Of a stretch of 64,000 nucleotides of DNA, positions 1 to 7,125 are shown piece by piece (the stretch's first letter is position 1; every line of letters begins with the position of its first letter). The notes below the pieces were generated by a model. That model made no database searches. It was not told the DNA's origin and saw only the letters and a program-made list of their open reading frames with translations. Source of the DNA: a virus; the IMG/VR virus record IMGVR_UViG_3300031885_000003, positions 18,854 to 82,853 of that record. One strand, given 5' to 3'. Position numbers and translations under genes: made by a program.

Positions 1-1187
1 ATCAGTTCGCCAACCCCCTTGTCGCTGTAGATGAGGGCGTTGTTGCCAAGGGATTTAATGACTCGTTGAGTGCCTTGCCACGGCACCGGCAAGATCCCCA
101 TATCGCGCCGGTGTAGGTGCTCAAGGTAAAACGGCCGCGTCAGTCCGTACTTGCTGACGTCAACATCGTAGACCTGCACGTTGTCGAGGCTGAGAGACGC
201 CCCGGCAGATCCGGTGAATAGCAGGGTCGCGCCGGAGACGGGACAATCGACTTCCTCGAAGTAGTAGCCGTCAGCCGACCGCGGAGTAAGCGCCGTGCCG
301 CCAAGAGAGGCCGTGATCGTGCCCGAGACGTAGTTTTTGACCAGATAACCGACGCAATAGCGTTTCCCGGCAACAGATGATGCAAGCGCCTGAGACGCGG
401 TATCCGCTCCGGAGAAGTCCAGCTCGAGCGCGACAGCATCCCACATGGCCGCGTCTGAGAGCGTCCAGTCGGTAGGCGAGACCCGGAACCGAGTTTGAGT
501 AGCGAGTTGGGTTATGGTCAAGGGCCCGTAAATGGCAAGATATGGAATGAGCAGAAACAAGATGTCCATCCCGCCATAGGCGGACCAGAACACGGCAGTC
601 TTTGGCAGCGTCAGCGTGATTGTGGTATCGAGGGTGTTCATAAGATGGCCGATGGCCTGCCACTGAGCGCGACCGTATGTGTCCGTCTCAAACCCGGAGA
701 CCAGGACTCTGCCATGATGTTCCGCGCCGCACTGGAAGTAGGCGTCCGCGCTACCCCATAGTTTCGTGGAAGTCACGTAAAGCACGTTGGTGGCATTGAC
801 CAGAATGACAGGACTGCCGAGATCGATGACGTGCCACGCGCCCCCGCCCGAAACGATGGTGTAGGTTTCATCCATGCCAAACAGGTTCAGCGTGGTACCG
901 GGGACTGCGCCGGTCCACGCGGTTTCGTTGATGATGTAGACGGCCGTTTCAGTCATCAGCAGAGAAAGTTGTTTGCCCCGGTAGAACTGAGGGAACGGCC
1001 ACGCCAGCGTGATCCCTTCCGCCGTCATCCAGGTCGCCAGCGGGTTCACGATAGTGTCGTATGCGACAAACCCGTACTGATTGGCCTTGCACCCTTGCAG
1101 GACGGTGAACCCCTGGGTATTGCGGGGATTGTCGTCGCTATGGACGAGTCCTTTGGTCAGTCCCTCTTTGTATTCAAGAACGTTCAC
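1..1187 (-). CDS. Tail nozzle/stabilisation-like protein, truncated at its C-terminal end by the window edge, with an internal CBM-like module
   Basis: Absent from the ORF track (no stop in window). GTG at 1187 overlaps the upstream TGA; reads MNVLEYKEGLTKGL...WPFPQFYRG...VAGKRYCVGYLVKNYVSG...LSLDNVQVY; lies downstream of the adaptor. Confidence 0.6.
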   Translation of the reverse strand, partial: MNVLEYKEGLTKGLVHSDDNPRNTQGFTVLQGCKANQYGFVAYDTIVNPLATWMTAEGITLAWPFPQFYRGKQLSLLMTETAVYIINETAWTGAVPGTTLNLFGMDETYTIVSGGGAWHVIDLGSPVILVNATNVLYVTSTKLWGSADAYFQCGAEHHGRVLVSGFETDTYGRAQWQAIGHLMNTLDTTITLTLPKTAVFWSAYGGMDILFLLIPYLAIYGPLTITQLATQTRFRVSPTDWTLSDAAMWDAVALELDFSGADTASQALASSVAGKRYCVGYLVKNYVSGTITASLGGTALTPRSADGYYFEEVDCPVSGATLLFTGSAGASLSLDNVQVYDVDVSKYGLTRPFYLEHLHRRDMGILPVPWQGTQRVIKSLGNNALIYSDKGVGEL

Positions 1188-1615
1188 TTGTCTTTCTTTT
1201 CTTTGGCAGTTTCAACCTGTTCGGGAGATGCGCCGGGGTAGTACATGAACGAGACGTGAAGTACCGGAACGGGTTTGTCCAGTTCGACAAACACCAAGGC
1301 GCCCTTCTTCACCGCAAAGGTAAAATCGATGCTGCCGGATTCGTTGGCGACAACCAGACGGGTGCCTGTCACGGTAGAGCCTTCCGGGACGATAGTGATG
1401 CTGGCAGTCTCGCCTTCAGGAAGCCCTTGCGCGCGCACGGTGATGTCGGCCACAACGCCATCTCGCGGAAATAGAATCGAGTACGGCGATCCGGGGGCCA
1501 GATCTATCGCCCTGAGAAACACGGGGGACGGCGCGGCCAGAAAGATCTCGATCTCTTTTGGCGGGTCAACCACCGTTCGAGGTCGGCGAAATGACATCTT
1601 GCTTGGATTCTTCAT
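1184..1615 (-). CDS. Hypothetical virion-module protein (beta-rich, 143 aa)
   Basis: ORF coupled to both neighbours by 4-nt overlaps. Confidence 0.7.
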   Translation of the reverse strand: MKNPSKMSFRRPRTVVDPPKEIEIFLAAPSPVFLRAIDLAPGSPYSILFPRDGVVADITVRAQGLPEGETASITIVPEGSTVTGTRLVVANESGSIDFTFAVKKGALVFVELDKPVPVLHVSFMYYPGASPEQVETAKEKKDK

Positions 1616-1908
1616 ATAGTGATCTGTCCATGCTCGTCTTTCATTGCGCCGAGCCGTTGTTGGATGAAATCATGCCTGGTTTCACGGAACAACAGTTCCA
1701 TGTCAGCCAACCGCTCTTGGGCCTGTTGGCCCGCGCCAAGCGCAGCCGCCAGCATGTAGAGAGTGGCTTTGATGAGCAGCCACGGTTTCTGCAACGTGAT
1801 ATAGTTAGATGGATTCCCGCTACTCAGATCTGCCGGGTAGAACGTGCCGCTTACGCGGTACGTGTACGTCCCGTCAGCCGGGGGAAGAAATGCGATTGTG
1901 CCGGTCAT
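1612..1908 (-). CDS. C-terminal half of a podovirus head-tail adaptor (split gene)
   Basis: AAGGAG RBS; IAFLPPADGTYTY...YPADL...NYITLQKPWLLIKATL matches the P-x-P/A-D-x-x-Y-T and P-x-LL-x-x-A-L pattern I recall for SU10/N4-type adaptors. Confidence 0.6.
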   Translation of the reverse strand: MTGTIAFLPPADGTYTYRVSGTFYPADLSSGNPSNYITLQKPWLLIKATLYMLAAALGAGQQAQERLADMELLFRETRHDFIQQRLGAMKDEHGQITI

Positions 1909-1918
1909 GTAAATCTCC

Positions 1919-3670
1919 TTACCATGTCCCTATGGCCGCCCGTTTCCACGTGTTTGTCGCCATGCAAACGTAAATGTAGCTGGCATCAATCCGAATTTCC
2001 CCCAAGGTTCCAGTGTCACCAGCATTTGCAGGTGCGGTGTTGAGTGCGGAGAGCCTAAACTGCGCAGCAGCCGAATTGCCGTCTACCAGCAGGTTGTTGT
2101 CACCCGGATCGCTGACGCCGCCGACGTGGAGGCCAAGTCCGGCAACGACGTTGCCTGCAAACACCCCGTCGCCCATCTCAATCAGCGAGATATTGTCCCA
2201 GTCTGTGTACCCCCCCGAATCACCACCATTTACCATCCACACGTCCACAGTTATACATGACGTTGTAGTTACAGCAGTAAAATAGGCCGTGACTGTGCCG
2301 GGACTAATATAGGTTGCGCTGTAATCTTCATCAAGCCACGGCATACTGCCAATGGTTACATTGGTATGATTCATCCCGCCGCCATTACCCACGTATGTAT
2401 AAGTAAACTTATAGCGTTTGCCTACTACAAGAGCTGTAAGTTGGTACATCCGTGCCACCGGAAATGACGATGCGGACTTCGTTATTCTTAGACTTCCTGC
2501 ATTAAGAGAGGCTACGCCGTCTAGTGCCGTCCATCCCGTTAAACTGCTCCCATCACCATTGACGACTTTCTCCGCGCTGTTCGATGCCGCCAGCCCTCCA
2601 GCACAAACGATCCCGCCAGAGGTGATCGGATAGTCTGAAAGATCGAAACCTTGCCAACCGAGAACAACACCGCTATTTGGTTGTTTGTAGTCGCTCCCAC
2701 TGGCATCCTGATGATCCATGAAATCAAAATGGAATTCGCTGTTCATGCTGGTCTCTGTAACGTTTGAAATAAAATTGAAAATCCTTCCAGTTGTGTTCAT
2801 ATTTCCGGCGGAATTTCGTCCAGAAAAGGCATAATGTCCTGTCTGCTCACCATTCACAGCCGGGTCAGTCTGATTCTGTAAAACCATGGTCCCGCCAAAT
2901 CCACCATAATTGATCAAGTCGAGTCTTCCACTGTTTGCGAATATTGCAGACACTTGAGAATTGCTGTCTATCAACGTCAGTGGAGAATCATCGGATATGC
3001 CAGATGTCTTCCCCTTAATAACTGTACTGCAATGAATAGCAGTAGTCCACGGAAACGCAACATAATCAAACACCGTCGTCCCGATGCCGACGTTGCCAGT
3101 GGCATGTTGAAGTAACAGCGTCGGAACCCACGACATTGCGCTGTTGTAGAATCCAAGATCATCTGTTCCAGGTGCTAGATCTCCCCTGAGTCCTACTAAC
3201 CATTTATTCACTCCATCTGTCACGTAAACCGCTTGTGCTACGTTTGGCGACGCATATGATATACGTTTATAGTACACTGTTCCATTAGTACCATCATAAA
3301 ACGTCCCGGTGGTCCCGGCAATCGTGTTCGGGGTCCCTGAGCCAATCGTTCCTGGGATCGCCCATGTCTGCCCAAGTAATTGATACGCATTCGAGGCCGT
3401 TGCCGCCCGCAGGTTCGTCACTGCCGTGGTACTGGCTACAGTCAGCGGGGCCGTGCCCGTAGTCACGGTCGAGACGAGTTGACTTCCGGTGACGGTGCTG
3501 TCGGAAGCGACAGCCCCGTTCGTCGAGATCGCCCCGCCCGCCGTAATGGTCGCCCCGGTTGAACCGTATCCGCCGGAAACGATGAGCGTGTCAAACCACT
3601 CGGTACGCGCCCCGACAAACAGGACCGCAGCGAGAATCAGGCATAACGCCAATAAACTCTTCTTCATCAC
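1919..3670 (-). CDS. Tail fibre/receptor-binding protein with N-terminal signal-peptide-like sequence and CBM-like module
   Basis: G/T/S/A-rich, GNVGIGT fibre motif, C-terminal GTLGEIRIDASYIYVCMATNTWKR motif, N-terminus MKKSLLALCLILAAVLFVGA. Confidence 0.75.
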   Translation of the reverse strand: MMKKSLLALCLILAAVLFVGARTEWFDTLIVSGGYGSTGATITAGGAISTNGAVASDSTVTGSQLVSTVTTGTAPLTVASTTAVTNLRAATASNAYQLLGQTWAIPGTIGSGTPNTIAGTTGTFYDGTNGTVYYKRISYASPNVAQAVYVTDGVNKWLVGLRGDLAPGTDDLGFYNSAMSWVPTLLLQHATGNVGIGTTVFDYVAFPWTTAIHCSTVIKGKTSGISDDSPLTLIDSNSQVSAIFANSGRLDLINYGGFGGTMVLQNQTDPAVNGEQTGHYAFSGRNSAGNMNTTGRIFNFISNVTETSMNSEFHFDFMDHQDASGSDYKQPNSGVVLGWQGFDLSDYPITSGGIVCAGGLAASNSAEKVVNGDGSSLTGWTALDGVASLNAGSLRITKSASSFPVARMYQLTALVVGKRYKFTYTYVGNGGGMNHTNVTIGSMPWLDEDYSATYISPGTVTAYFTAVTTTSCITVDVWMVNGGDSGGYTDWDNISLIEMGDGVFAGNVVAGLGLHVGGVSDPGDNNLLVDGNSAAAQFRLSALNTAPANAGDTGTLGEIRIDASYIYVCMATNTWKRAAIGTW

Positions 3671-3679
3671 ACTTTCTCC

Positions 3680-4510
3680 CTACTTGTTGCACCACACCCT
3701 CTCGTCAGTAATGACGAGATCTATGATACTACCTTCGCCTACGGAATGAAGAATTTTTCCCAAGAGAAGGGTGCCTGGAGGAACGGCAGGCGCAACGGGC
3801 GCAACTGCTTCCGTCCCCGTGACGATCTGTATGGCGCTGGCGCTCGTGATGACCACGCGGTCGATGCGGGGAAGGACTGTCGGTGCGGGCATACCGCCAG
3901 ACGTGTACTTTGCCTGCAAGGCTAATGGGGTTGTGTCGAGGAACGCGATGCCTTCGGCAACCTCGATACACATGGAGGCGGGCGTTGTTTGACTGACAGC
4001 CAGGCCGTCGCCGCCCGCGCCGTACGCGAACGCCGCACTGTTGTCTTCGATCCCCGCCATCCGGGACAGTATGAAATTCATGATCCCCAACTGCGCGGCC
4101 AGGCCGGACGAGGCCGAACCTGTCGGCGTCTCGGAGACTTCGCACCAATGCGCCGGCGTCCCTTGCTCAAGATCCGCGTCTCCCAATGTCAACTCGTAGT
4201 AATCCACCATCCACGCTTCTGACTTCATCAGGGGTTTCACAATCGACTTCGAGGCGTCCCACATCCGCAACATCTCCGGCTGCCGCAGGTAATCCGCCTG
4301 AATCTGGTACGCGCCCGCCGATAGCGTTCCGTCCACGTACCGGGTTTCGCAGAGTTCCGGGAGCCTGTCGCAAAGGTACTGCATCCCTTCGTTGATGTAG
4401 GCGTCGATACCGTTGTCCGTGGTGTAGTCGGGGTTTCCCCCAATCGTACCGACCAGATCGTACCGCCCGCTTCGCTTTACGACGTGCTCCCGAATCTGTG
4501 CAAGTGTCAT
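3680..4510 (-). CDS. N-terminal half of head-tail adaptor fused to a minor-tail/fibre-anchor-like domain
   Basis: First gene after MCP; MTLAQIR...IDAYINEG...GTPAHW adaptor-like pattern, then GLAV...PRIDRVV...GTEAVAPVAP...ITDER domain. Confidence 0.65.
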   Translation of the reverse strand: MTLAQIREHVVKRSGRYDLVGTIGGNPDYTTDNGIDAYINEGMQYLCDRLPELCETRYVDGTLSAGAYQIQADYLRQPEMLRMWDASKSIVKPLMKSEAWMVDYYELTLGDADLEQGTPAHWCEVSETPTGSASSGLAAQLGIMNFILSRMAGIEDNSAAFAYGAGGDGLAVSQTTPASMCIEVAEGIAFLDTTPLALQAKYTSGGMPAPTVLPRIDRVVITSASAIQIVTGTEAVAPVAPAVPPGTLLLGKILHSVGEGSIIDLVITDERVWCNK

Positions 4511-4530
4511 CTTCCGATTCTCTCGGTTAT

Positions 4531-4560
4531 GTGGGAGCGGGGCCGAAACCCCGCCCCCAC
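4531..4560 (-). terminator. GC hairpin with UUCG loop after the capsid gene (terminator/stabiliser)
   Basis: Minus strand GTGGGGGCGGGGT-TTCG-GCCCCGCTCCCAC; no U tract. Confidence 0.5.
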
Positions 4561-4571
4561 GGGTTCATGGG

Positions 4572-5894
4572 TTAACCGTTTAGCCCGACGCCGTACAGGA
4601 GCATGAAGTCCTGCGCACAGCCCCATTCGTAGGAGCCCTGCGTGTAGAACTCCTCATGGATCCCGTCTTCGCCGGATACCTGCTCTTCCTGGTTGGCAGG
4701 CGGCGACTTACGGAAGTGGGTGTCCATGTCGGAGAAGGGACGCCACTTGACGTTGCCGAGGTTGAAGAACAGCCACGCATGACGCCAATCCTCGCTGCGT
4801 TTGTTGAACAGCGGGTGCGGAGTCAGTCCGACTTTGCCGTGAGGCGTCAGCCATGTGCGGATATCGAGACCGTATACATGGCTTTCGGGGGTGATGTCGA
4901 TGTTGCCGTAGGTGGCCCCGAGGTCGGTCACGCCCTGCGCCGCGCCGGACCCGCAGAAACTCAGACGTTCGCCGTTGCTGGTGCCTTGGCGGAACAACTC
5001 CTCGAACTTCCCGTTGAGCCACGTCGGGCCTTTGCTAAGCCATGTGTTGCCCGCATAGTCCACGCGGAAATCCGCAATGCGCGTCGAGTCGAGTTGACCC
5101 GCCGCGATGCACCGTTTCATGAAATCGACCATGCCCATTTGATGATATTCGGGCTGGCCGTTCCTGCCTGTGCCTTCCCATCTCCGCTCCCAAAAGGCGG
5201 AACGTTCGCGGGCCAGCGTGTGAAGTTGCAACTTCTGGCCTTTCACACGGTCATACTCGGGCGTGCCGTAGCGAGTCTTCTCCTTGAGCGCGTTGTTGGT
5301 CAAGTCCAGCGCGGTGCGGATGATCTGTGCGCGGTTGTAGAGATCGTCCGGGTAGTAGGTCACGTCGCGGGGCCGGGTGTCGCCATGCGCGAACGCCGAT
5401 GACACCATGGTGATGTTGTTGCAGTTAGCCAGCGTCTTGCCGCCAACCGCCGTGTCCGCTTCCGTCAACCGCACGGTCAGGTAACTGTTCGCTCCGGCAA
5501 TGTACGGGTGCGCGATGACCTTGCCGTGTATCACGTACAACGGGTAGTTGTCCACGCTCATCTCGACCGTATGCCCTTCGAGGAATTCATCGGCGAGGGC
5601 TGCGGCCAACTGGACGTATACGATGGTTCCATCCACGCCGGCAGCGGCAACGTAGGCGCTGGTCAGCGCCGGGTCGTTGTGACAGTGGGTGATCGCGCCG
5701 CACTGTACCGGCGGCGCCTGCACCATCCACGTGTGCTTGTCGGAATTGACGGATTTGGTGGGAATCTTGGCCGTCATCGCCGTGAACGGGACGCGGCCTT
5801 TGAAATCCCAGTACAAGATGCCTTCCTTGTACGATTGGGGTTTATGACCGGCGGGGATGTCCCCCGTTCCGATCATGCCATAAGCAGTAGTCAT
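4572..5894 (-). CDS. Major capsid protein (SU10/DUF5309-like podovirus type)
   Basis: 440 aa downstream of scaffold; YNRAQIIRTALDLT, ERSAFW and YGLDIRTWLTPHGKV..HPLF motifs; strong codon bias. Confidence 0.85.
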   Translation of the reverse strand: MTTAYGMIGTGDIPAGHKPQSYKEGILYWDFKGRVPFTAMTAKIPTKSVNSDKHTWMVQAPPVQCGAITHCHNDPALTSAYVAAAGVDGTIVYVQLAAALADEFLEGHTVEMSVDNYPLYVIHGKVIAHPYIAGANSYLTVRLTEADTAVGGKTLANCNNITMVSSAFAHGDTRPRDVTYYPDDLYNRAQIIRTALDLTNNALKEKTRYGTPEYDRVKGQKLQLHTLARERSAFWERRWEGTGRNGQPEYHQMGMVDFMKRCIAAGQLDSTRIADFRVDYAGNTWLSKGPTWLNGKFEELFRQGTSNGERLSFCGSGAAQGVTDLGATYGNIDITPESHVYGLDIRTWLTPHGKVGLTPHPLFNKRSEDWRHAWLFFNLGNVKWRPFSDMDTHFRKSPPANQEEQVSGEDGIHEEFYTQGSYEWGCAQDFMLLYGVGLNG

Positions 5895-5967: not shown

Positions 5968-7095
5968 TTATGCCTTGCTCGCTGCGGCTACGGCATTGGC
6001 GGTCTTCACCATCTCAACGATGAATGTTGACCGGCCCGTGTCGCCTACCGCATGTACTGTGACTACGGTTGCGGTTATTGTCTTAGCTCCGGAATAAGCT
6101 TTCGGTGCGCCACAATAATCGCCATAAGGGGCTCCCGGAAGATTCGGTAGACTCGACAATCGAGCCGCCGCCGCTGGAGCGGTTTTTAGGTCCACGGCGT
6201 CGAAATAGCCATCGGGATCGTCGTTATCGCCAACGTTCAAGGTCGCGCTGGTCGTGTTGTTCCAGACTGCGGAATTGATCCAGTCCATGTTCAAGACGGT
6301 ATACCCGGCAGGAACCGAGACAGTGGCGGTGTAGGTTCCGGCTGTCGCTGTCTCGGTGAACGTCCTGACAAACTTGAGTGCGTTGACCTGAGCCTGAACC
6401 GCCGTCACGTTTCCGGTAACAGCGTTGATCTCGGCAGGGGTCGCCGTCACGGCGGTGCCGTTCAAGGTCAACGTCGTGATGTCAAGAGCCGTTACCACGT
6501 TTCCGGGGGTAGTCGTTGTAACAACTTTCCCGGCCTCGGCTGCACCAAGCGTGGTGACATCACAGTAATTCAACTCCGCGGCGGTAGAGGTTACGTTCGT
6601 GTTGTCGATGGCGAAGTTGGTTTTACAGTCGAGACCGAGAACCTGGTTGGATGCGTCGGCGGTAACGGCTTTGCTGGCCTGAGACGTTCCGAGGGTCGTA
6701 ACATCGTTGTAGTTGAGTTCGATTGCCGTCGAACTAATTGCGGTTCCACCGACTTTCCAGGCCGTCAGGTCAATAGTGTCGATCTTGCCGGTTGCACCAA
6801 GAACAACCGCTTTATTAGAGGCGGATGTCCCCGGAGTCACTGCGTCGAGTACGCCGAGTTCTGCCGCACTCAATCCGGTGCCCGGAAATGCGTTTATCTC
6901 GGCGGCGCTGGCCGTAACGGTAACGCCGTCAATCGCCCAACCGTCGGTAAGGTCAACGGGATTGAAGAACTTGATCGTGTCACCAAGCCATTCGATACCG
7001 ACTGCATACAACTGGCCCTGCAAATTGATGGCATAGGCCGCCGTGCAGGCAATCAGCCCAATCGCCAGTCCGATGTACCACTTTTTGTGTCTCAT
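5968..7095 (-). CDS. Head fibre/decoration-like protein with signal-peptide-like N-terminus
   Basis: GAGGAG RBS; repeats T(A/S)xA(A/I)E(L/I)N and DVTTLG; N-terminus MRHKKWYIGLAIGLIACTAAYA. Confidence 0.65.
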   Translation of the reverse strand: MRHKKWYIGLAIGLIACTAAYAINLQGQLYAVGIEWLGDTIKFFNPVDLTDGWAIDGVTVTASAAEINAFPGTGLSAAELGVLDAVTPGTSASNKAVVLGATGKIDTIDLTAWKVGGTAISSTAIELNYNDVTTLGTSQASKAVTADASNQVLGLDCKTNFAIDNTNVTSTAAELNYCDVTTLGAAEAGKVVTTTTPGNVVTALDITTLTLNGTAVTATPAEINAVTGNVTAVQAQVNALKFVRTFTETATAGTYTATVSVPAGYTVLNMDWINSAVWNNTTSATLNVGDNDDPDGYFDAVDLKTAPAAAARLSSLPNLPGAPYGDYCGAPKAYSGAKTITATVVTVHAVGDTGRSTFIVEMVKTANAVAAASKA

Positions 7096-7125
7096 GGGTA
7101 GATACTCCTCCATTGGTTGACAGGG

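Follow-up and report, generated by a model that had tools for sequence, protein, structure and literature searches.

A phage head–tail adaptor predicted to be divided between two genes that flank a fibre gene

The locus described here lies in a 64,000-nucleotide stretch of viral DNA, called the window below, which comprises bases 18854-82853 of the 82,853-bp IMG/VR virus record IMGVR_UViG_3300031885_000003 (rated 94% complete). Three consecutive open reading frames (ORFs), namely ORF1, a fibre gene and ORF3, occupy positions 1612-4510 of the window. An original prediction, made from the letters alone, held that a head–tail adaptor gene has been split in two here by a fibre cassette of ~2.2 kb. 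The four elements concerned all lie on the minus strand at the positions listed below, and comparison with known protein families indicates that ORF1 and ORF3 carry complementary halves of one adaptor family. The features, given in the order in which they are read, are as follows.

3680-4510, minus strand: ORF1, 276 aa, starting MTLAQIR, directly downstream of the major capsid protein gene
4115..4510, minus strand: adaptor N-half, ORF1 residues 1-132, predicted to hold bundle helices 1 and 2 and the greater part of the beta-dock
3680..4114, minus strand: ORF1 residues 133-276 plus stop, with a linker, a predicted helix at ~137-151 and then a predicted beta-sandwich at ~166-276
1919-3670, minus strand: fibre gene, 582 aa from the ATG at 3667, between ORF1 and ORF3
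3437..3670, minus strand: fibre N-terminal module of ~75-77 aa, hydrophobic at first and then rich in Gly, Ser and Thr
1919..3436, minus strand: distal fibre, about residues 78-582, with a CBM-like domain and a C-terminal tail-protein motif
1915..1920, minus strand: ribosome-binding site AAGGAG of ORF3, overlapping the TAA stop of the fibre gene, 6 nt before the ATG at 1908
1612-1908 (1612..1908), minus strand: ORF3, 98 aa, the adaptor C-half, predicted to hold the final pair of dock strands, two long helices of the bundle and a C-terminal portal-embracing tail

The full fibre gene that had been proposed to follow ORF1 is present, with two candidate starts, GTG at 3670 and ATG at 3667. The latter, which has GGAGA 7 nt upstream, is the likely start, and the 582-aa form also occurs in the Atlas and as P0055. 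ORF3 is likewise a separate 98-aa gene with a ribosome-binding site of its own.

The case for a divided adaptor begins with the family matches of the two outer genes. Against the Pfam family SU10_adaptor (PF24175, 194 positions), ORF1 residues 1-103 align with profile positions 1-88 (23.6 bits) and ORF3 residues 5-77 with positions 106-177 (20.3 bits). A custom hidden Markov model (HMM) was built from nine unsplit SU10-type adaptors of 226-249 aa, three of which were scanned against Pfam (P0024, P0027, P0028) and all pass the PF24175 cut-off. With this model, and with E-values at a nominal Z of 1e6, ORF1 residues 1-132 match positions 1-126 (108 bits, E 1.8e-29) and ORF3 residues 4-94 match positions 149-239 (94 bits, E 4e-25). 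The MTLAQIR start, by which among other features ORF1 had been likened to a podovirus adaptor, opens the matching part. In the unsplit relative P0027 (244 aa), residues 18-148 align with ORF1 residues 3-135 at 38% identity (BLASTP, E 1e-26) and residues 148-240 with ORF3 residues 4-96.

Searches from the C-terminal side lead to the same proteins. With ORF3 as query, a phmmer search of 1.8 billion representative proteins of any length returned one near-twin of 98 aa and otherwise matched the C-terminal ~90 residues of proteins of 226-249 aa and of 319-531 aa, the longer adaptor-family members being mostly insert-bearing. Most of the scanned matches are SU10_adaptor members at Pfam's own threshold, and the proteins that match ORF3 by their C-terminus match the first ~130 residues of ORF1 by their N-terminus. 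The matches of the two genes are colinear and non-overlapping and together span the adaptor family, and they lie 2.2 kb apart. ORF1 by itself covers the first half only, which disposes of the idea that it is a whole adaptor, and uninterrupted homologues exist as single chains of 226-249 aa, P0027 among them. In other words, where the SU10-type adaptors used for comparison are single polypeptides, the fold is divided here between ORF1 residues 1-132 and ORF3 residues 4-94, a division that applies to eight genomes.

A six-frame scan of the whole 82.8-kb genome (94% complete) with the custom HMM found no adaptor piece besides ORF1 and ORF3. A PF24175 family search of the phage's own genome returned nothing, since this first look missed both halves, and PDB sequence searches with ORF1 or ORF3 gave no match even at E 10. 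One mixed alignment (A2) was discarded: in it the C-halves of unsplit adaptors were mis-aligned onto the domain appended to ORF1. The original prediction had also held that in SU10/N4-type adaptors GxP-x-x-W/Y is followed directly by L.P.PD..YT; in the unsplit relatives GxP..W does precede PP.DG.YT, with a variable loop of ~15-45 aa between the two motifs.

The position of the break was placed on a structural model of P0027 (predicted local distance difference test, pLDDT, 82), which superposes over its full length on solved podophage adaptors. The Z scores are 14.1 for cyanophage A4, 13.4 for VP1 and 13.4 for SU10 (7Z47_A, residues 12-244), with N4 and T7 lower; matches at Z 13-14 include 9K09, 8ZKK and 7Z47. 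The model has helices at residues 18-29 and 50-64, strands between 70 and 167, long helices at 186-201 and 204-233 and a short tail. This topology agrees with the published adaptor of phage A1002, in which residues 2-48 and 158-208 form the bundle and residues 49-157 the beta-dock, followed by a C-terminal domain (PMC13730344), and with SU10 gp11, which has a helix bundle, a long-tail-fibre dock with dock loops, and an embracing loop (PMC9509320). The break maps to P0027 residues ~137-148, a loop that precedes the last two dock strands, so that helices 18-29 and 50-64 fall before it and helices 186-201 and 204-233 after it. Residues 140-143, inside this loop, are the only internal stretch of the model with pLDDT <50. 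By homology to the model, the break is therefore placed within the beta-dock domain, in keeping with the proposal that a fibre-dock domain was broken, and the loop would correspond to the fibre-dock loop of SU10.

The same loop is an in-frame insertion hot spot in single-chain relatives. P0031 carries an insert of 134 aa between HMM positions 135 and 137, P0033 one of ~150 aa between 120 and 139, and P0029 one of ~260 aa between 118 and 143; in P0030 the insert is ~280 aa long, includes an NHL repeat and lies between 137 and 146. Even among the nine unsplit members of the profile, five have a loop ~30 aa longer at the break position. None of the loop inserts of the single-chain relatives resembles the domain appended to ORF1 by BLASTP. 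Two Atlas clusters annotated as SU10-adaptor plus CBM_4_9 hold 93 and 123 members, from which we conclude that domain-bearing adaptors are common in viral metagenomes.

Domains are also found elsewhere in this family. In the 401-aa relative P0025 a CBM_4_9 domain is inserted after the first ~25 residues of the adaptor, and the 361-aa relative P0039 is an adaptor with a 120-aa N-terminal extension. It seems that adaptors of this family often serve to display sugar-binding domains.

Because the record is a metagenome-derived viral contig, and the distal fibre is deviant in G+C content at third codon positions (GC3), the cassette might be thought to have been mis-assembled into an intact adaptor gene. 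Three sediment-metagenome runs carry the DNA, and independent Logan assemblies from them reproduce the junctions: in run X2 a single contig spans positions 1400-4700 with one difference, in a second run two overlapping contigs cover the stretch, and a third study holds identical fragments (runs X1, X3). No Logan contig in the three runs skips the fibre cassette or joins across it. The same junction between ORF1 and the fibre gene occurs in two short metagenome contigs (L002 and L003) and in a contig of an NCBI metagenome-assembled genome (MAG), and ORF1 fusions and free-standing 98-aa genes are found in many other samples. An assembly artefact is effectively refuted.

Conservation bears on whether both halves still function. 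The seven other homologues of ORF3 are free-standing genes of exactly 98 aa, with 63-91% identity, and all begin MTG(T/S)IAFLP. The set has 40 invariant columns, including the PP...G motif of the family, and keeps the family's C-terminal G. Five homologues of ORF1, of 271-283 aa, share 59-72% identity over 96-100% of its length and stop at the same position; a sixth, P0006 (218 aa, 58% identity), is an N-terminally truncated partial sequence. In L002, L003 and the NCBI MAG contig the ORF1 homologue is followed by a fibre gene of the same kind, the two having consecutive locus tags in the MAG contig. The ratio of non-synonymous to synonymous substitution (dN/dS) in ORF1 is 0.1-0.2 in both the adaptor half and the appended domain, and 0.16-0.18 for residues 1-132 in comparison with L002 and L003, showing that ORF1 is under purifying selection.

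ORF3 could nonetheless be a decaying, non-functional remnant, with ORF1 alone, or a protein that escaped recognition, acting as the adaptor. ORF3 is short, each half falls below the Pfam cut-off when taken alone, and the sequencing runs listed include no RNA run. Counter to this, the eight versions of ORF3 (63-100% identity) have all kept the length of exactly 98 aa, the 40 invariant columns and both family motifs. ORF3 also has a strong ribosome-binding site and is translationally coupled to the next gene, its stop overlapping the start of a 143-aa ORF as ATGA (1612-1615). Missing from ORF1 are two elements common to the fold, the pair of C-terminal bundle helices and the tail that embraces the portal, and the six-frame HMM scan found no other adaptor gene in the genome. 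We consider a remnant very unlikely. On these comparisons the split is real, old and maintained, and fixed in a small clade.

Alternatively, the two halves might end up in one chain after all, through stop-codon read-through, splicing of an intron, a split intein or excision of the cassette by DNA rearrangement. The TAG stop of ORF1 (3680-3682) is in frame with the fibre gene in the window (a gap of 9 nt or 12 nt, depending on whether the fibre starts at GTG 3670 or ATG 3667) and in L003. In L002, however, the gap between ORF1 and the fibre gene is 11 nt and out of frame. In the window the 10-nt gap between the fibre gene and ORF3 is out of frame too. Since L002 does not keep the frame relation, a read-through fusion of ORF1 with the fibre was rejected. 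Rfam, introns included, has no match over 1400-4700, and the intervening DNA is conserved coding sequence under selection. The homologues of the ORF1 tail are fibre domains and not inteins, while the sequence of ORF3 is that of an adaptor from its very start. As for excision, flanking direct or inverted repeats do not stand out, no convincing repeat or target-site duplication surrounds the cassette, and, as noted, no contig in the three runs runs across it. We give rejoining hardly any credence. No convincing excess of internal terminators or promoters was seen within the region.

The frame shared by ORF1 and the fibre gene in the window and in L003 is probably a coincidence; occasional read-through would yield an adaptor–fibre fusion.

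The extension of ~140 aa by which ORF1 departs from the adaptor family had been said to resemble fibre-anchor proteins, and both sequence and modest structural matches relate it to the N-terminal anchor domains of fibre-like proteins. About fifteen fibre-like proteins (P0007-P0021, ~282-409 aa) align by their residues ~40-143 with ORF1 residues ~170-272 at 38-41% identity, with database E-values of 2e-8 to 2e-4 and pairwise BLASTP E-values of 1e-10 and 1e-13 over ~95-100 aa. The downstream parts of these proteins vary (Gly_rich_2, Gp10_C-like and various tail PHROGs). We interpret this combination of a conserved N-terminal domain and varied distal parts as the signature of an attachment domain whose distal parts are swapped. 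In the ORF1 model, only the appended domain is trustworthy (pLDDT 66-89 over residues 200-260). VIA-align comparisons with PDB representatives gave Z 6.2 for SPP1 gp22, 6.1 for Mtd (61-172), 6.0 for the receptor-binding protein (RBP) of lactococcal phage 1358 (34-174), 5.5 for the tail fibre of cyanophage A-1(L), 4.6 for the phage p2 baseplate (a chain of 2WZP) and 4.0-4.5 for the TssK N-domain. The Atlas model of ORF1 has template-modelling (TM) scores of 0.74-0.80 to clusters with Collar, BppU (BppU_IgG) or Phage_tail_C domains. Provisionally, we assign ORF1 residues ~166-276 to the shoulder-type anchor domains of RBPs. It shares with these its homology to fibre N-terminal domains with variable distal parts; its location differs, being C-terminal in ORF1, with the fibre encoded by a separate gene.

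The fibre gene itself falls into two parts of contrasting history. Its N-terminal ~75 residues have about 100% amino acid identity to the fibre of L002 at 86% nucleotide identity, so the differences between the two are synonymous. The same module is 91% identical to P0056, the neighbour of the ORF1 homologue P0006 in the NCBI MAG. After residue ~78 the fibre is unrelated to that of L002. GC3 follows this division, at 0.73 for the N-terminal module, 0.70-0.75 for ORF1, ~0.72 for neighbouring genes and 0.46-0.53 for the distal two-thirds of the fibre (1922-3430). The last 43 aa match a tail protein (PHROG 17312, E 3e-8), and residues 362-535 resemble CBM_4_9-type domains in the Atlas. The distal fibre thus looks like a swappable receptor-binding part that was recently exchanged. 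The genome-like GC3 and the conservation of the ORF1 anchor domain and the fibre N-terminus mark these, in turn, as long resident and tightly constrained. Of the proposal that an insertion added an anchor domain and a new fibre, the recent look therefore holds for the distal fibre only; the anchor domain and the fibre N-terminus have the genome's own GC3.

Two further observations concern the fibre. A further contig of run X1, 5.2 kb long and at depth 12, matches positions 2106-2302 alone, with 24 differences, and points to another phage in the sample that shares the C-terminal part of the fibre. A hydrophobic, signal-peptide-like start is found both in the 582-aa fibre (MKKSLLALCLILAAVLFVG...) and in a 381-aa protein at 5968-7113 (...WYIGLAIGLIACTAAYA). 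The protein-level conservation of the fibre segment across relatives, despite synonymous changes in the DNA, means that it is functional, perhaps as a secretion signal or as a hydrophobic docking plug.

Taking these lines of evidence together, we think it probable that the adaptor gene underwent fission at the variable beta-dock loop, that ORF1 and ORF3 co-fold, and that the fibre docks on the shoulder domain. ORF1 would contribute bundle helices 1 and 2, the larger part of the beta-dock and, continuing in frame, the shoulder anchor domain; from ORF3 would come the remaining pair of bundle helices, the final two strands of the dock and the C-terminal tail that embraces the portal. Because the bundle and the dock each need segments from both halves, the two proteins would have to associate, most likely by co-folding as an obligate heterodimer, since neither half can form the four-helix bundle alone. 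Twelve ORF1–ORF3 pairs would build the adaptor ring, in which ORF3 would grip the portal and the shoulder domain of ORF1 would lie peripherally, projecting from where the fibre-dock loop used to be. The fibre whose gene lies between the halves would attach to this domain, with its invariant N-terminal ~75 residues as plug and its distal part exchanged between relatives. Such docking is suggested by the virion-proximal role of the domain in fibres, by the adjacency of the genes and by the strong constraint that they share.

It could be argued instead that the halves have separate functions, ORF3 as a small neck or portal-binding protein and ORF1 as a fibre-anchoring protein elsewhere on the tail. 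The C-half has a predicted portal-embracing tail and could in principle bind the portal alone, and the adaptors of DEV, GP4 and A1002 are known to carry accessory collar proteins (PMC13730344). Yet the bundle and the beta-dock are each built from both halves, and isolated halves would expose hydrophobic cores. The genome offers no other adaptor to fill the ring, and each half keeps the positions conserved across the unsplit family. We regard separate functions as unlikely.

Returning to fission of the adaptor, we lean modestly towards a wider view of what the locus represents: an essential dodecameric ring made from two separately translated fragments, with a receptor-binding module lodged in the fibre-dock loop. 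On this view the loop is a general insertion hot spot by which adaptors become carriers of sugar-binding or fibre-anchoring domains, and in this clade the process would have led to fission, with the fibre gene nested inside. Dock and fibre would be genetically locked together, and exchange of the distal fibre would stay possible. Fission is the derived state, given that only a tiny clade is split within a broad family of single chains. It may have arisen by one insertion of a segment carrying anchor and fibre, or by a later break of an adaptor that already bore an insert, a route suggested by the insertion hot spot at the same loop in single-chain relatives. The original prediction is largely supported: its broken dock stands, whereas its clean single insertion may not hold, since an insert-bearing adaptor may have undergone the fission.

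Several points weigh against this interpretation. Each half alone lies below the curated cut-off of PF24175 (27 bits). The ORF1 model is poor in the N-terminal half (pLDDT about 30-50), so the fold assignment of the window protein rests on sequence homology; a Foldseek search with this model gave no match at E<=0.001. The fold matches of the appended domain, at Z 4.0-6.2 and a root-mean-square deviation of 2.6-4.0 over 83-96 residues, are modest and in the range of chance matches, while being coherent in theme. That this domain docks the fibre is a guess by analogy with its place in other fibres. The co-assembly of the two chains, their stoichiometry and the presence of either in the virion are likewise deduced from sequence comparison. 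Finally, the complete order ORF1–fibre–ORF3 is seen in this genome alone, the contigs of the relatives being short.

The wider setting is that of a SU10-type structural module. The operon is on the minus strand, and the adaptor pieces sit between capsid and tail or nozzle genes, where an adaptor gene is expected. Its other members, in the order of the operon, are the following.

539-aa ORF, minus strand: terminase by position in the operon
Portal gene, minus strand: weak SU10_portal and PHROG portal matches
324-aa ORF, minus strand: scaffold-like, after the portal gene
116-aa ORF, minus strand: between the scaffold-like ORF and the 381-aa fibre-like ORF
5968-7113, minus strand: 381-aa fibre-like ORF, upstream of the capsid gene
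4572..5894, minus strand: major capsid protein (MCP), Pfam SU10_MCP, E 8.8e-10, 39 bits, above the cut-off
1184..1615, minus strand: 143-aa ORF, after ORF3; nozzle-like genes then follow
Window 3-1187 (running on to genome position 18151) and L001 16202-18337, minus strand: a pair of adjacent large tail ORFs, of 630 and up to 711 aa

Further tail genes beyond the window edge (upstream of the window) continue the operon. The MCP upstream places the locus in the SU10-type module, and L002 has the same order of MCP, ORF1 and fibre. The 143-aa ORF (1184-1615), which has no Pfam or PHROG match, may be a further neck or tail component of the module; the part of the 630-aa tail ORF that lies within the window likewise has no Pfam or PHROG match, and the 711-aa tail ORF has no Pfam match and one weak PHROG of function unknown.

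Neither the DNA of the region nor the ORF1 and ORF3 proteins have any match among GenBank phages. IMG/VR scans with MCP, A1, P0027, P0022 and A5 as queries found no relative, and a search of GTDB genome contigs with A5 and A1 found no match. A scan of JGI metagenomes returned as relatives only the two short contigs L002 and L003. We conclude that this uncultured phage is deeply divergent and short-tailed, with a head and neck module of SU10 type.

Comparison with known systems helps to define what is unusual. Adaptors of the SU10 gp11 type (PF24175; 7Z47, 8ZKK, 9K09; T7 gp11) belong to the same sequence family, occupy the same place after a SU10-type capsid gene and, by homology, share the fold of bundle, beta-dock and embracing tail, with a dock that holds fibres (PMC9509320). 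The members compared are single polypeptides of ~190-250 aa, in contrast to the 276-aa and 98-aa proteins found here, where a chain break and an added domain of fibre type stand in place of the dock loop and the former gene encloses a gene for a fibre. The insert-bearing single-chain adaptors (P0029, P0030, P0031, P0033, and the 'Carbohydrate binding/SU10 adaptor domain-containing protein' of the Atlas) have an extra domain at the same beta-dock loop; unlike the arrangement here, the insert keeps the frame of a single chain, the gene encloses no other, and BLASTP gives no similarity between the insert and the ORF1 domain.

The shoulder domains of RBPs (lactococcal phage p2 and 1358 RBPs, SPP1 gp22, Bordetella phage Mtd and TssK of the type VI secretion system) are beta-sandwiches of ~100 aa, to which the ORF1 domain has a modest fold similarity (Z 4-6). 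They sit at the N-terminus of a fibre or RBP, whereas the domain here forms the C-terminal end of half an adaptor, with a stop codon after it. In the published literature we found no split adaptor, the nearest precedent being the nozzle of the Pseudomonas podophage A1002, which is split into nozzle-rope gp39 and nozzle-base gp42 (November 2026; PMC13730344). There, too, one tail-ring protein is replaced by two that share its function, in connection with an unusual attachment of fibres. The two cases differ in that A1002 has a split nozzle and a single-chain adaptor, gp47, and that its split was shown by cryo-electron microscopy while the present one is predicted from sequence.

Adaptors are usually regarded as conserved, single-chain, rigid connectors. 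Annotation pipelines will miss adaptors of the kind proposed here, because both halves lie below the Pfam cut-off and the genome-wide family search came back empty. If the interpretation is correct, the adaptor fold tolerates a chain break in the dock loop, which would make this loop a permissive site for studies of fibre attachment. The locus would also be a natural, testable case of protein-fragment complementation in virion assembly, beside the split nozzle of A1002. Host-recognition modules could then be gained by insertion into an essential structural gene and not just by swapping next to it. The layout, maintained in a small clade, would be an unusual way of equipping the virion with a fibre that recognizes the host.

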